A stretch of DNA of 64,000 bases from an uncultured Planctomycetia bacterium (lineage in GTDB: Bacteria > Omnitrophota > Gorgyraeia > 2-01-FULL-45-10), in contig CAYSSS010000001.1 in assembly GCA_964433975.1 (NCBI GenBank), positions 78,257 through 142,256 of the forward strand, read 5' to 3'. The position numbers were made by a program, and so were the translations under genes. The first letter of the stretch is position 1. Every line of letters begins with the position of its first letter. The notes beneath the pieces were generated by a model. That model saw only the letters and a program-made list of their open reading frames with translations. It made no database searches and had not been told where the DNA came from. Positions 148 through 5,765 of this stretch are shown here, in pieces.

Positions 148-2043
148 TTGACTATCCCGGTGATAAAGGATATAATCTTCACGTTATACAATATGAAGAA
201 CATACTTAATAAGCTAAGAATACCTGTGATGGTGGGCATGGACCTGATGTTAGTGAATCTGTCTATGTTCCTGGCCTTTGCAATTAGATTTGACTGGCGA
301 TTTACCAACATCATTGCATCTCCCTGTCTGTATTTTATGCTGTGGGCGGTCATTATCAGGATTACGTTATTCGCCATCTTTGGGATATATCAATGGTCAT
401 TTCGCTATGCGAGCATAAGCGAAGCAACGAATGTATTAAAGTCCATAACAATAGGTAGCTTATTACTTATTGCGGTGGCATTTTTTACACAACTCATAGA
501 GATGAGCCGGTCAGTACTGCTAATTGATTATCTGACCTGTCTTTTCCTTATAGGCATATCAAGATTCTCTCCGAGGGCTTTGATTAAATTCACGCAACTA
601 AAATCCTATAATCTCAAAAGAGTTCTTATAGTAGGAGCCGGCGCATCAGGTGAAATGGTCGTTCGTGAGATGATAAGCGCGAAAAAAAGAACTTATCAAC
701 CGGTCGGTTTTATCGACGATAACCCGACTAAGCTGCATTCCCGCATACATGGGGTAAGGGTCTTAGGTAAGATAGAAGACATTAGAGATGTGATAGGCCG
801 CCATAATGTTTCGGAAGTGATCATTGCAGTCCCATCCGCAAGCGGTAATACGATAAGGGATATTGTGTCAAAATGCGCAAAGTCGGATGTAAAGATTAAG
901 ACCGTGCCGGAGCTCCACAAGATCTTAACCGGCGAGGTAACAATAAAACAGATAAGAGACGTAAGCCCGGAAGATCTTTTAGGCAGGGAAACTGTTAGTA
1001 TAAGCATGGAAGATGTAAGTGCTTTTATCAAGGATAAAGTTGTTCTGATAACGGGCGCCGCCGGCACTATAGGGTCAGAATTATCGAGGCAGGTATCAAA
1101 ATTTAACCCGAAGCAACTGATATCATACGATCTGAATGAAAATGACGTATATTTTTTAGAGATCGAGCTCAAGTCGAGCTATCCCTATCTGAAATTTAAT
1201 ACAGTGATAGGCGATATAAAAGATATAGGACTGTTAAAAAATACATTTTCCAAGTACAGGCCCCAAATAGTTTTCCATTCCGCGGCACATAAGCACGTGC
1301 CTCTTATGGAGGGAAATCCGGTCTCTGCCATCAAGAATAATGTTATAGGCACAAGGAATCTTATTTACGCTTCGGAGCACTATATGGTAGAGAGATTTGT
1401 CATGATATCTTCGGATAAAGCGGTAAATCCTACGAATGTAATGGGGGTTTCAAAACGTATAGCGGAAATGATGATACAATCGAAAGCAAAAACAGCCAGG
1501 ACAAAATTTATGGCGGTTAGATTTGGTAATGTTATTGGTTCCAGCGGGAGCGTCGTCCCTATATTCAAGCGACAGATTGAAAGAGGAGAGCCGGTAACTG
1601 TAACCCACCCTGAGGTCAAGAGGTTTTTTATGACCGCTAAAGAGGCCGTGCAGCTTGTCATGCAAGCGGGCGCTATCGGTAAGGAAGGTGAAATCCTTAT
1701 TCTCGATATGGGCGAGCAGATAAAGATACTGGACTTGGCCAAAAGTCTCATAACTTTATCCGGACTTGAGCCCGATAAGGATGTGGGAATTAAGTTTATC
1801 GGTTTAAGACCGGGTGAAAAGATGTATGAGGAAACACTGCTTGATGTAGAGCATGATAGGGCAACCAAACATGATAAGATCTATATTGCGCAGCCAAATA
1901 ATTTTGATCCGATTCAATTGCGGGAAGATATAAAAATACTGGAAAAATTGGCTAATTTAATGGCCGAGGCCAAGATAATAGATAAAATCAAAGAGATGGT
2001 CCCAACTTACAAACCGAATGGTAAATACAATGGCAGTAAATAG
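148..2043 (+). CDS. Membrane-anchored NDP-sugar 4,6-dehydratase of the PglF/CapD/WbpM family (polysaccharide biosynthesis protein).
   Basis: 631 aa. The N-terminus is hydrophobic with multiple TM helices. There are two Rossmann motifs, LIVGAGASGEMVV and VLITGAAGTIGSEL. The SSDKAVNPTNVMGVSKRIAE motif is typical of CapD-like dehydratases. The true start may lie downstream of 148, for example the Met at 208. Confidence 0.85.
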   Translation: MTIPVIKDIIFTLYNMKNILNKLRIPVMVGMDLMLVNLSMFLAFAIRFDWRFTNIIASPCLYFMLWAVIIRITLFAIFGIYQWSFRYASISEATNVLKSITIGSLLLIAVAFFTQLIEMSRSVLLIDYLTCLFLIGISRFSPRALIKFTQLKSYNLKRVLIVGAGASGEMVVREMISAKKRTYQPVGFIDDNPTKLHSRIHGVRVLGKIEDIRDVIGRHNVSEVIIAVPSASGNTIRDIVSKCAKSDVKIKTVPELHKILTGEVTIKQIRDVSPEDLLGRETVSISMEDVSAFIKDKVVLITGAAGTIGSELSRQVSKFNPKQLISYDLNENDVYFLEIELKSSYPYLKFNTVIGDIKDIGLLKNTFSKYRPQIVFHSAAHKHVPLMEGNPVSAIKNNVIGTRNLIYASEHYMVERFVMISSDKAVNPTNVMGVSKRIAEMMIQSKAKTARTKFMAVRFGNVIGSSGSVVPIFKRQIERGEPVTVTHPEVKRFFMTAKEAVQLVMQAGAIGKEGEILILDMGEQIKILDLAKSLITLSGLEPDKDVGIKFIGLRPGEKMYEETLLDVEHDRATKHDKIYIAQPNNFDPIQLREDIKILEKLANLMAEAKIIDKIKEMVPTYKPNGKYNGSK

Positions 2044-3373
2044 GGAATGGCTTGATAGGCTGATAGTGCTGTCTTTATGCAGTATGATATTTACTCTGCC
2101 GTTTTCAAAATCAGCGGTGGAGATATGCATAATAACCGCTTTTGTGTTATGGATTTTAAAAAGATCGTTATCGTACGACCCAAAGGTCCCCCTTATACGA
2201 ATATTTAAACCGCCCAGTTCAAAATTAAATCTTCCAATATATTTATTTATTTTTGCCGGATTTTTATCGGTCGTCGCTAGCGCCTCAGTTTCGCTAAGCC
2301 TTAAAGGTATATTTTCCAAGCTGCTCAAAGAGGTGATTTTGTATTTTTTGGTGATAGAAACTATAAATAATAGAAAAAGACTGCACTTTGTTTTAATATT
2401 CATGGTACTGTCCATGCTACTTATAGGCGCGGACGGGATCTTTCAGTTCAGTACATACCGGGATTTTTTAAGGGGTTATCTGCAGGAAGGGAGGATTACG
2501 GCTTCTTTCAATACCGCCAATGGCCTAGGCGGTTGGATCACAGTTATGTTGCCGTTGGCTCTTGGCATGATCTTTACAGGAAAAGCTCCACGGCCGAAGC
2601 AGGCCTTTAAGTTTATACTATTTTTTTTATCGTGTGTTTTGTTGTTTTGTCTAGTGATGACTCGCTCGAGGGGAGCATGGGTGGGATCAGCTTTTGCCAT
2701 GATTTTTTTCATTGTATGTAAAAAAAACAGAGTATTTTTTATCGGGATGGCTATCATGTCGGTGCTGTGTATTTTTTTTCTTGCGTACTTGGTATGTGCA
2801 CATCCGGGGTTTACCGAGTTGCTCAGAGAATCTGTGAGCTTCAGCGCAAATGACGGCCATTTATCTTTTGTTAGAGATTTTTTTATCTCAGTCAAAAATT
2901 ACGCAGTCCAGATCATGCTAAAAACAGATATCGTAAGGACCCATTTATGGCGGGAGGCGCTATCGGTCATTAAAGACTTTCCTGTTTTTGGATGCGGCTT
3001 AAATACGTATTCTATTGTTGCCCCTGGTTACAAAGGTGATATTGGAGGAGAGGCCGGATTTTATCCGCACAACTCTTATCTTCAAATGGCTGCTGAAACT
3101 GGAATTGTTGGGTTGGCTTCTTTTCTTATTGTTGTGATAAGCTTATTCAGGGTCTCTATTAAGAATCTACAGAAGATCAAAGAAGCGTTTTACAACAGCA
3201 TATTGATCGGGTTATTGGCCGGATTATTCGGTTTTTTGGTGCATAGTTTTTTTGATGTTAATTTATACGCCTTGCAATTAGTTAATTTAATGTGGTTTGT
3301 CATGGGGTTGATTATTGCTGTTCAGAGAATAGCATTGAAGGAAGAAAGTAAGTCGTTAGGATATAATGCCTAA
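2018..3373 (+). CDS. O-antigen ligase / Wzy_C-domain polytopic membrane protein (WaaL or PglL-type O-oligosaccharyltransferase-like).
   Basis: 451 aa with many TM segments. The loop motif YPHNSYLQMAAETGIVGL matches the Wzy_C signature (H-N-x-Y-L-x-x-x-x-E-x-G). The start is ambiguous between 2018 and 2030. Confidence 0.7.
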   Translation: MVNTMAVNREWLDRLIVLSLCSMIFTLPFSKSAVEICIITAFVLWILKRSLSYDPKVPLIRIFKPPSSKLNLPIYLFIFAGFLSVVASASVSLSLKGIFSKLLKEVILYFLVIETINNRKRLHFVLIFMVLSMLLIGADGIFQFSTYRDFLRGYLQEGRITASFNTANGLGGWITVMLPLALGMIFTGKAPRPKQAFKFILFFLSCVLLFCLVMTRSRGAWVGSAFAMIFFIVCKKNRVFFIGMAIMSVLCIFFLAYLVCAHPGFTELLRESVSFSANDGHLSFVRDFFISVKNYAVQIMLKTDIVRTHLWREALSVIKDFPVFGCGLNTYSIVAPGYKGDIGGEAGFYPHNSYLQMAAETGIVGLASFLIVVISLFRVSIKNLQKIKEAFYNSILIGLLAGLFGFLVHSFFDVNLYALQLVNLMWFVMGLIIAVQRIALKEESKSLGYNA

Positions 3374-4178
3374 AAACAGAAAACCTCAATCGTTAAAACT
3401 TGGTTGTTTAAAGGATCCCCGTGATTTACGTGACATTCCAATGGGGCTGGTCCTGCCTCCGATACCGCTACCCGATAAAACCGATTATACGGTCAGCATG
3501 ACCCCTGTTAGAAATCAGGGCAATGAAGGAACGTGCGTGGCGTTTGCAAGTGTTGTAGGTATAAAAGAGTATCAGGATTCCAGAGAGTATAAGAAGATTA
3601 TAGATTTATCGCCGCGGTATAACTATAGCCTGTGCAAGAAAAATGACGGCAGCCCCGAAGAAGAGGGCACATATCCCAGGGTCGCAATGAAGATGCTGCT
3701 GAGCTTCGGTACGCCTCCCGAGAGATATTGGCCGTATAAGCCCCATCAAATTGATAAACCGAAACACGGTGCCGATAAGGCAGCAATGAAGTATCGCATA
3801 AAAGCCTACGCTCGTATCAAAACTAACCTTGAAATGAAACGAAGCCTGGTTATCAATGGTCCGTTCATGGCGGGCGTAGATGTGTACGAGTCGTGGTTTA
3901 CAGAGAAGGCCTCTAAAACCGGACTGATACCTATGCCTATAAAGTCCGACCAGTATCAGGGCGGTCATGCCATATGCATAGTCGGTTATGATGACAAAAG
4001 GAAGCTATTTAAATTCAAGAACTCTTGGGGTGATGATTGGGGAGATAGTGGATATGGTTATCTAACCTACGACTATATGAAACAATATTGCGTTGATGCC
4101 TGGAGCGCCACAGATTTAATTGAGAATCCGATGGCGCTGGTAAGTAAGATAGAAGAGGTTTTGGTACGGTATGCCTGA
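3366..4178 (+). CDS. Papain-like cysteine peptidase (family C1A-like), with no obvious signal peptide.
   Basis: The catalytic motifs are Q-x5-C (QGNEGTCVAFA), His (GGHAICIVGYDD) and Asn (NSWGDDWGDSGYGY). All three are spaced as in papain. Length is 270 aa. Confidence 0.8.
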   Translation: MPKNRKPQSLKLGCLKDPRDLRDIPMGLVLPPIPLPDKTDYTVSMTPVRNQGNEGTCVAFASVVGIKEYQDSREYKKIIDLSPRYNYSLCKKNDGSPEEEGTYPRVAMKMLLSFGTPPERYWPYKPHQIDKPKHGADKAAMKYRIKAYARIKTNLEMKRSLVINGPFMAGVDVYESWFTEKASKTGLIPMPIKSDQYQGGHAICIVGYDDKRKLFKFKNSWGDDWGDSGYGYLTYDYMKQYCVDAWSATDLIENPMALVSKIEEVLVRYA

Positions 4179-5765
4179 TTATATTCTGGGAATATCGGCG
4201 TTCTATAATGATTCCGCCGCCGCGCTGCTTAAAGACGGCGAGATAATAGCTGCGGCCCAGGAAGAACGCTTTACGCGTAAAAAGCACGACCCAAGTTTTC
4301 CCAAAAATGCAATATCATATTGCTTGCGCGAAGCAGGTATCGGCAAGGCAGATCTTGATCTAATGGTATTTCATGATGGCAGCTATAAAAAAGACGTAAA
4401 AAAAAACTAAAATTTCGCGGCAAGCAGCTATTTTGCAAACATCACTACGCTCAGGCGGCAAGCGCTTTTTATCCGTCCCCATTCAATAAAGCCGCGATAC
4501 TTGTAGTTGATGGATCAAATGCTCAGGTAGCGGCAGCTTTTGGCAGTGGCACAGACAATTCAATAAAAATTCACTCCTCTATAAAATTCCCGAATTCCAT
4601 AGGGTTGCTATATTCCGTATTTACGCATTATTGCGGATTCAATCCCGATGCTGATGAGTATAAGTTAATGGGGTTGGCTCCTTATGGCAAGCCGGTTTAT
4701 GTTGACCTGATTATGGAGAAGCTTATTAAGCTGAGAATCGACGGTACTTATCGTATAAATTCGAATTACTTTACTTTCCGGGCGAAGCATAAAAAATCCA
4801 ATAAGAAGTTCACAGATCTCTTCGGCGGCCCCCCAAGAAAAAAAGATGACGAGATAGAAAAAAAACATAAGGACCTCGCGCGTTCTGTCCAAGCCGTCAC
4901 GGAGATTGCTTTGATGAACATGGTGAATCGCTTGTACGGGAAAACAAGGCTGGAAAACCTTTGTATGTCAGGTGAAGTGGCGCATAATTGCGTTGCGAAT
5001 GGTAGAATATTAAGGGAAGGGCCTTTTAAGAGGGTGTGGATACAGCCAGCGCCTTCCAGCGCTGGGTGCGCTCTCGGGGCAGCATTTTTAGGTTGGCATG
5101 AATACATGGGCAAGCTCCGAAAAGTCAGCAGGGCCAGAGATTTGCAGAAAGCGAGCCTTCTGGGCCCATCGTTCTCCGATGAAGAAATAGAAAGCTATTT
5201 AGAAGAAAATAATATAAAATATCAAAAATTGGCGAGAGCGGCCCTTTTAGCAAAAGTTGCCGGTTTTCTGGCTGACCAAAGAATAGTTGGGTGGTTCCAG
5301 GGCAGGATGGAGTTCGGCCCCCGCGCTCTGGGGAACCGTAGTATTCTGGCGGATCCCAGGTCAAAAGATATGCGCGATATTATTAATTCAAAAATCAAAT
5401 TCAGGGAAAGTTTCAGGCCATTTGCGCCAAGCGTGCTTCTGGAAAAATCACGGAACTTCTTTGATCTGGAATACGAAAGCCCATACATGCTTTTTGTGTC
5501 AACGGTTAAAAGGAGCGGATTTCCGGCCATAACACATGTTGACGGCTCAGCTAGGGTGCAAACAGTAAAGCATGAAGACAACCCTCTTTTTTATGATTTA
5601 ATAGGGCAGTTTTATAAAGACCACGGTTGCCCCATGGTTATAAATACATCTTTTAACAGGATGGGGGAGCCGATAGTCTGCACGCCTGAGGATGCTTACG
5701 GATGTTTTATGAATACCGAAATGGATTATTTAGTTATGGGTTCATTTATTATTGGAAAGGTTTAG
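4171..5765 (+). pseudogene. NodU/CmcH-family carbamoyltransferase split by a frameshift at an A9 homopolymer (4398-4406). It is either a phase-variable or inactivated gene, or a homopolymer sequencing error.
   Basis: ORF 4171-4410 encodes the family N-terminus (MPDYILGISAFYNDSAAALLKDGEIIAAAQEERFTRKKHD..DLDLMVFHDGS). The adjacent frame continues without a gap with LKFRGKQLFCKHHYAQAASAFYPSPFNKAAILVVDGS..EYKLMGLAPYGKP..., running into the annotated ORF 4605-5765, which carries the C-terminal NodU motifs (GRMEFGPRALGNRSIL, NTSFN). A single +1 change (A10) in the A-run would restore one ~530 aa ORF. Confidence 0.6.

Follow-up and report, generated by a model that had tools for sequence, protein, structure and literature searches.

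What is a papain-like cysteine peptidase doing inside an operon for surface glycan biosynthesis? The question is raised by a 64,000-nucleotide stretch of contig CAYSSS010000001.1 from an uncultured member of the Omnitrophota (assembly GCA_964433975.1, positions 78,257 to 142,256; referred to here as the window), in which the gene for such a peptidase, 270 amino acids in length, is one of the first genes of a glycan island that exceeds 60 kb and is nearly all on the forward strand. Polysaccharide clusters belong to the best-catalogued bacterial loci, and papain-family peptidases are not on their parts list. In the analysis reported here, the encoded protein was identified as a C1A peptidase of the xylellain type, and its association with glycan loci was found to be real for the clade of relatives that are at least 60% identical to it. 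As to its role, we judge the chances to be about even that it is a latent cytoplasmic endopeptidase which is co-expressed with the glycan operon and has as its target a conserved protein that takes part in glycan assembly or its regulation.

The window protein carries every feature of a C1A peptidase that could be tested. It matches the Pfam profile Peptidase_C1 (PF00112) with E=1.1e-22 and 81.7 bits (cut-off 20.7), residues 37-238 being aligned with profile positions 3-207 of 220, and a phmmer search of the PDB matched 171 distinct papain-family sequences, headed by xylellain (3ois_A, E=3.8e-29). The full papain catalytic apparatus (Gln-x5-Cys, His and Asn), which the original prediction had claimed from the sequence alone, is present in these alignments: Q51, C57, H201, N219 and W221 align with their counterparts in cathepsin K and xylellain, and none of the five varies across 48 family members. 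In a wider set of 79 sequences, with identities as low as 33%, Q51, H201 and N219 remain invariant and C57 is found in 76; examined for lost catalytic residues, the alignment shows the triad and Gln51 to be kept in the window protein. The motif at the third catalytic residue reads N219-SWGDDWGDSGYGY. The substrate wall G101-T-Y-P-R is likewise considered to be kept, because it is invariant and falls on the G-G-Y motif in the alignment with cathepsin K; its counterpart in papain is the segment G65-G66-Y67-P68.

The AlphaFold2 (AF2) model of the protein displays the two-domain papain fold, with a predicted local distance difference test score (pLDDT) of 95 and a predicted TM-score (pTM) of 0.91. 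This model was computed from the 79-sequence alignment, since an alignment of 48 sequences (>63% identity) gave a pLDDT of 58.8 and was unusable. A Foldseek search of the PDB with the model returned 300 matches at E<=0.001, with C1 peptidases throughout among the 50 matches listed. Membership of the C1B group (bleomycin hydrolase/PepC) was considered and rejected, there being no full-length match to its profile PF03051; residues 200-245 alone match it (positions 360-409 of 438), and this is a region shared with C1A. No NCBIfam model matched the window peptidase, the sole PHROGs match was a generic "peptidase" family, and the PADLOC defence models matched neither the window peptidase nor its relative at locus L160.

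Xylellain (3OIS), a cysteine protease of Xylella fastidiosa that has been characterised but has no known substrate (PMC12090721), is the closest match in both sequence and structure, being the top Foldseek hit with a TM-score of 0.76 over 263 columns (target 268 residues). Both are single-domain proteins of approximately 270-290 residues without a signal peptide, and both begin with an extension some 35 residues long that contains a D-x-R-D motif, the two extensions being aligned with one another (phmmer aligned residues 12-246 of the window protein with 3OIS 33-284). The resemblance has its limits, as the two are only about 30% identical and xylellain has Tyr where the window clade has the invariant Cys14. 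The papain-type mature start is D40-Y41 and is preceded by the 35-residue extension (residues 1-35); the claim that the protein has no pro-domain is, therefore, not upheld, the extension being the best-conserved part of the family. Mean column identity among the 48 family members is 0.855 for residues 12-35 versus 0.779 for residues 36-250, with G13, C14, D17, D20, R22, D23, I24 and M26 invariant, and D20, R22 and D23 are retained in 69-73 of the 79 relatives down to 33% identity. Across residues 11-40 the AF2 pLDDT is 93-96. On this evidence, and on that of the Foldseek ranking given next, residues 1-35 represent a short pro-segment like that of xylellain.

Next in the Foldseek ranking are procathepsins K and L, whose alignments (approximately 250-260 columns) take in the segment before the mature N-terminus, while the mature cathepsins rank below the zymogens with approximately 225-231 columns. 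Procathepsins K and L share with the window protein the two-domain papain fold, the catalytic residues and the GGY/GTY wall; the window protein differs from them in having no I29 domain, signal peptide or disulphides, in a pro-segment of 35 rather than about 100 residues, and in being the probably cytoplasmic product of a bacterial, operon-encoded gene. Assignment to the cathepsin-L-like zymogen class was rejected on the basis of the missing I29 match, the length of the extension (35 residues) and the absence of a hydrophobic N-terminus. The N-terminal segment of xylellain reportedly blocks its active site, and because the invariant N-terminal block of the window protein is homologous to that segment, it suggests a latent enzyme which would be held inactive by an N-terminal plug and activated by displacement or removal of that plug.

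The peptidase open reading frame (ORF) begins at the first start codon 3' of an upstream in-frame stop, and no N-terminal extension of the ORF is therefore possible. The overlaps which the original prediction had reported with an O-antigen-ligase-like gene and a carbamoyltransferase gene are both real and amount to 8 nt each, the upstream Wzy_C ORF ending at 3373 and the carbamoyltransferase ATG at 4171 lying ahead of the peptidase stop codon at 4176-4178 (Table 1). Translational coupling of the peptidase to both genes is supported. Within the subclade of the window (78-86% identity) the commonest gene order is Wzy_C, peptidase, carbamoyltransferase, and a Wzy_C gene occupies position -1 of the peptidase in six loci of this subclade.

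The predicted absence of a signal peptide was confirmed: the highest Kyte-Doolittle mean over 19 residues is 0.72, and the protein contains no hydrophobic or transmembrane segment. The disulphide cysteines of papain are absent (five Cys in all, the catalytic one included), and inteins, whose splicing takes place in the cytoplasm, are found in three relatives; because the protein is leaderless, lacks the disulphide cysteines and has intein-bearing relatives, it is probably cytoplasmic. A lipoprotein reading of the LGC at residues 12-14 was rejected, as there is no hydrophobic h-region.

The location of the product bears directly on the alternative that the peptidase is an exported effector which leaves the cell by non-classical secretion to break down the proteins of a host or of prey. 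A host-dependent way of life is generally attributed to Omnitrophota, and a latent pro-form would suit an exported protease. Such a role has been proposed for the xylellain-like peptidases of plant pathogens, which lack signal peptides and are predicted to be non-classically secreted, although the genes of these peptidases lie in or near prophage regions, unlike the glycan-operon setting described here (PMC12090721). The window protein, however, has no signal peptide, transmembrane segment or disulphide pattern, its gene is translationally coupled to those of cytoplasmic and inner-membrane glycan enzymes, conservation as extreme as that of the family is rare in secreted effectors, and the chagasin-type partner of a relative at locus L151 also lacks a signal peptide. 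An exported effector is, accordingly, regarded as very unlikely.

The inteins of the xylellain-type C1 relatives occupy three different sites, each of which is beside a catalytic residue. A LAGLIDADG intein of approximately 360 residues directly precedes the catalytic Cys57 (as the +1 residue) in a 61%-identical family member which is itself encoded within a glycan locus (L153:6819-8702); in P0163 and P0220 the intein lies before the equivalent of Cys204, three residues past the catalytic His, and in P0250 it follows Asn-Ser-Trp-Ser.

The second part of the answer concerns the genomic setting of the relatives. A total of 165 loci were collected from species-representative genomes and JGI metagenomes, ORFs were called, and the genes around 83 non-redundant family members were clustered, the cluster representatives being named with Pfam and NCBIfam. 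Genes that recur near the peptidase encode SDR sugar epimerases/dehydratases (44 loci), a beta-repeat protein of approximately 330 residues (32 loci, in most cases at -1 or -2), an 85-residue SemiSWEET protein (25 loci), RmlA (20 loci), B12/radical-SAM enzymes (15 loci), GT2 glycosyltransferases (14 loci) and the exopolysaccharide (EPS)-associated MarR regulator TIGR04176, or MarR_EPS (11 loci), with RmlD, UDP-glucose dehydrogenase, Wzy_C, Wzz and Wzx present in further loci. For relatives at least 60% identical to the window protein and with at least three neighbours (46 loci, the named ones being Omnitrophota), at least one glycan gene was present within four genes of the peptidase at 41 loci and at least two at 35, and 149 of the 287 neighbouring genes were of glycan type. 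Among relatives of this identity, 113 of 116 immediate neighbours are co-directional with the peptidase, the gaps have medians of 11.5 and 20 bp, and 29 overlaps were recorded.

The seven contexts annotated with Pfam are polysaccharide clusters without exception, although of differing architecture: Wzx/Wzy-type in the window, L001 and L168, Wzm/Wzt ABC-type in L004, and, in L169 and L167, the head of a cluster beside MarR_EPS, ManC, RmlA/D and Wzz. Position -1 of the peptidase is occupied by the 330-residue protein, SemiSWEET, Wzy_C or an SDR enzyme, and position +1 by Wzz, MarR_EPS, RmlA, GT2, Wzx, carbamoyltransferase or DAO, giving more than 10 different immediate neighbours across the relatives. 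A literature search for C1 peptidases within O-antigen or polysaccharide clusters found no report, and the association between the peptidase and polysaccharide operons seems not to have been described before. Mobile or toxin-antitoxin-type genes (AAA_14/DUF4143 ATPases, AbiEi/AbiEii) were repeatedly observed directly beside the peptidase in glycan loci (L167:6780-10068, L006:8084-9220; L119, L133, L011, L010).

Which reaction would such an enzyme perform at these loci? As its peptide-bond machinery is complete (triad, oxyanion hole and papain-like wall), peptide hydrolysis is taken to be the default chemistry. An amidase or transacylase role had also been suggested, in which the Cys nucleophile would act on a nucleotide-sugar or a lipid-linked repeat unit, taking off or transferring one of its N-acyl, aminoacyl or peptide groups. 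The recurrent glycan context fits such chemistry, as does the embedding of the gene among those for aminotransferases, a carbamoyltransferase, radical-SAM/B12 enzymes and NeuB; the mini-chain of cathepsin H, moreover, restricts the cleft to small substrates, and a permanently bound N-terminal segment could do the same here. Nevertheless, neither the papain-type wall for peptide binding nor any of the peptidase residues has changed, and the peptidase is 65-86% identical across relatives whose neighbouring tailoring and Wzy genes vary widely, which is not the pattern expected if the enzyme recognised a particular sugar decoration. No confident fusion to a glycan enzyme was seen among 10 multidomain relatives that were examined, their fusions (Amidase_2, FGE-sulfatase, PPC, DUF1353, zinc ribbons, tandem C1) giving no consistent functional hint, and a literature search found no C1A member with such chemistry. 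No positive evidence for the suggestion thus emerged, and we consider it quite improbable.

A further argument for peptide-bond chemistry is provided by locus L151, where a gene for a chagasin-family (I42) inhibitor without signal peptide (L151:7582-7989) precedes the gene of a 59%-identical relative and overlaps its start by 4 nt. This chagasin-C1 pair argues for a real and potentially harmful peptidase activity within the family. No inhibitor gene was noticed among the annotated ORFs of the window, unlike at L151, and latency would here depend on the N-terminal plug alone. The peptidase is, furthermore, 82-86% identical where the adjacent Wzy_C protein is only 30-60% identical and therefore does not track glycan structure; a conserved protein target is likely because the peptidase is near-constant while the neighbouring glycan genes vary. 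A protein substrate, presumably one belonging to the glycan pathway, is thus favoured over a glycan on account of the unchanged wall, the chagasin-coupled relative and a conservation above that of the glycan genes.

In the mechanism that we propose, the peptidase would be transcribed and translated within the very large surface-glycan operon, with residues 12-35 most likely occupying the cleft of the active site, like the corresponding segments of xylellain and the procathepsins, and the enzyme inactive. Displacement or cutting off of the plug would yield the active enzyme, in which the Cys57/His201/Asn219 triad and the oxyanion hole formed with Gln51 would cleave peptide bonds via a thioester intermediate. 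The target would most likely be a conserved protein of glycan assembly or regulation, not the glycan itself, candidates being an assembly component of the Wzz/Wzy type, the EPS-type MarR regulator and the 330-residue beta-repeat protein. A ribonucleotide located outside the active site of xylellain is said to modulate its activity; if such regulation held here, it would provide a natural link to nucleotide-sugar pools. Only tentatively, therefore, as something possible but on balance doubtful, do we raise the wider view that the clade is an unrecognised enzyme devoted to the making of surface glycans or EPS in Omnitrophota, gated by its plug and possibly responsive to nucleotides or nucleotide-sugars, which switches the pathway on or off through cleavage of a conserved protein of regulation or assembly (MarR_EPS, Wzz or the 330-residue partner) or, less probably, serves as a glycan amidase or transpeptidase.

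Several points weigh against the proposal of a latent endopeptidase that serves the glycan pathway. The position in the cleft that we infer for the plug derives from homology and from the ranking of zymogens. The 330-residue beta-repeat protein, SemiSWEET, MarR_EPS and Wzz were not found in the 64-kb window, and neither was DAO, so that models built on the usual partners may not apply to it. Recurrence of the glycan context among homologues, which the original prediction had named as a check, holds at 60% identity and above but not beyond: relatives 48-60% identical are located in glycan loci in only 3 of 14 cases, and in a control of 62 distant C1 loci (<40% identity, many phyla) glycan-like genes occurred at two loci and made up 2 of 432 neighbours, a count obtained with a reference set drawn from the family's own loci and therefore of lower sensitivity in other phyla. 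The context statistics are, in addition, not phylogenetically independent, as most loci are probably from Omnitrophota.

This last point would also fit the absence of any functional link, the peptidase being a housekeeping or stand-alone gene co-inherited with nucleotide-sugar genes in the manner of gnd and his, which flank the O-antigen locus of Escherichia coli. Many of the neighbours are indeed conserved rml, gmd or ugd-type genes, and relatives 48-60% identical, along with more distant ones, occur in other contexts. Yet inherited gene order alone is a poor explanation, because the immediate neighbours differ widely while the context is always a glycan cluster; the peptidase gene is, moreover, situated deep inside clusters and not at their edges only, with operonic spacing and frequent overlaps of start and stop codons. 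Purely positional co-inheritance is, for these reasons, considered unlikely.

Among the relatives of 48-60% identity, those of L160 and related loci are encoded beside a PLD nuclease, with a DNA methylase in the one full-length locus. The context of L151 is also non-glycan, with a nitroreductase gene and with MutL-, MiaA- and Hfq-like neighbours, the latter being judged from N-terminal sequences only. In an Elusimicrobia metagenome-assembled genome, genes for the exosortase EpsH and for EpsI (DUF3485) follow a 52%-identical peptidase gene (L010:9995-12429), which constitutes another link to exopolysaccharide-associated systems.

Returning to the endopeptidase proposal, a near-invariant, leaderless C1A peptidase is seen to accompany glycan operons that vary greatly within an uncultured phylum. 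A functional link would imply proteolytic control or processing in glycan assembly and would offer a concrete biological setting in which to search for the substrates of xylellain-type peptidases; if the link is only positional, the window protein would be an ordinary new member of a widespread family. A partial parallel is Cwp84 of Clostridioides difficile, a C1A peptidase which matures the S-layer precursor, and thus a cell-surface component, and is encoded near surface-polymer genes. Cwp84 is, however, a secreted protein with a long propeptide and cell-wall-binding domains, none of which is present in the window protein. The structure of Cwp84 is cited in PMC5542433.

The family is indeed widespread. 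A word-indexed search recovered at least 733 homologues; none of the best 120 falls below 65% identity to the window protein, the named ones among these 120 being annotated as "C1 family peptidase [Candidatus Omnitrophota]", and an exhaustive search of representatives at 50% identity gave 349 clusters at E<1e-30, a number that rises to 10,413 at E<1e-10 (the library includes eukaryotes). The papain family has been reported in all major bacterial phyla in a 2023 survey which also mentions "xylellain-type" short bacterial enzymes (PMC10380794). In view of this survey and of these cluster counts, the description of C1A peptidases as uncommon in bacteria is outdated. No paralogue of the peptidase was found within the 64-kb window.

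Table 1. Positions in the window of the peptidase gene, its motifs, the adjoining genes and the GT-C type glycosyltransferase genes
Feature	Position	Strand	Basis or remark
Xylellain-type C1A cysteine peptidase gene	3366..4178	+	270-residue ORF; PF00112, 3ois_A, AF2/Foldseek
Shine-Dalgarno-like AGGA	3358..3361	+	4 nt 5' of ATG, within the end of the Wzy_C gene; read from sequence
Conserved N-terminal extension, residues 12-35 (LGCLKDPRDLRDIPMGLVLPPIPL), putative plug/mini-propeptide with D20-x-R22-D23	3399..3470	+	conservation; xylellain alignment
Oxyanion-hole Gln51 to catalytic Cys57 (Q-GNEGT-C)	3516..3536	+	invariant columns; aligns with cathepsin K QGQCGSC
G101-T-Y-P-R105, substrate wall of S2/S3 subsites	3666..3680	+	family-invariant; aligns with cathepsin K GGY
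G199-G200-His201, catalytic histidine	3960..3968	+	invariant; aligns with catalytic His of xylellain and cathepsin K
Asn219-Ser-Trp221-Gly, third catalytic residue and shielding Trp	4020..4031	+	invariant
Wzy_C (O-antigen polymerase/ligase-type) membrane protein gene	2018..3373	+	Pfam PF04932, E=1.3e-22
NodU/CmcH-type carbamoyltransferase gene	4171..5765	+	Pfam Carbam_trans_N and Carbam_trans_C; two frames, A9 run 4398-4406
PMT_2 genes	5752, 13505, 15642, 19538		GT-C type; one further PMT_2 match without location
GT87-like gene	12099		GT-C type
YfhO gene	17360		GT-C type

With respect to the remainder of the window, the annotated ORFs of at least 200 residues between positions 148 and 63141 constitute a single co-directional glycan island. 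In addition to Wzy_C, the peptidase and the carbamoyltransferase, its genes specify a PglF-like dehydratase, GDP-mannose dehydratase, a DegT aminotransferase, a WbuC cupin, polyprenol-phosphate-sugar-type GT2 enzymes, several B12/radical-SAM enzymes, NeuB, cytidylyltransferases and methyltransferases including FkbM. At least six membrane glycosyltransferases of the GT-C type are encoded, and an RtcB ligase gene and a HisF-like gene are also located within the island.

Regarding the usual partners of the family, the gene of the 330-residue protein lies directly upstream of the peptidase gene, or one gene further away, in 24 of its 32 loci. The protein consists of repeated beta-hairpin-like units (F-x-G-x-W...N-x-L-x-Y), ends invariantly in ...IPF and lacks a signal peptide (examples are L121:6974-7987, L169:6965-7975 and L004:4118-5125), and searches of Pfam, NCBIfam, PDB, PADLOC and PHROGs yielded no match to it. 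The SemiSWEET/PQ-loop protein (NF037968, at cut-off) directly adjoins the peptidase in 20 of its 25 loci, as in L108:609-866 and L168:457-723.

The carbamoyltransferase gene of the window is split at GTA-AAA-AAA-AAC-TAA, a run of nine A residues (A9, 4398-4406), with the remainder of the gene in the -1 frame. An identical A9 run, codon and shift are present in L001 (18811-20405), L087 (2938-4258) and L086 (893-1462), where the flanking DNA has diverged. The long intact carbamoyltransferases (604-606 residues in L090 and L091, with a further copy in L006 that runs off the contig end) contain approximately 40 extra residues at the point of the A9 run and no run of A. A small hairpin is located 8 nt 3' of A9, in which changes on both sides preserve two of six pairs, as judged from four sequences only. 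On sequence grounds, the A9 run looks like a candidate site of programmed -1 frameshifting or transcriptional slippage. In the locus of an 86%-identical relative (L002:10791-13214), the carbamoyltransferase gene is intact and is followed by genes for SxtJ and a DUF5989 (SxtK-like) protein, a carbamoyltransferase-SxtJ-SxtK arrangement of the kind known from saxitoxin clusters.

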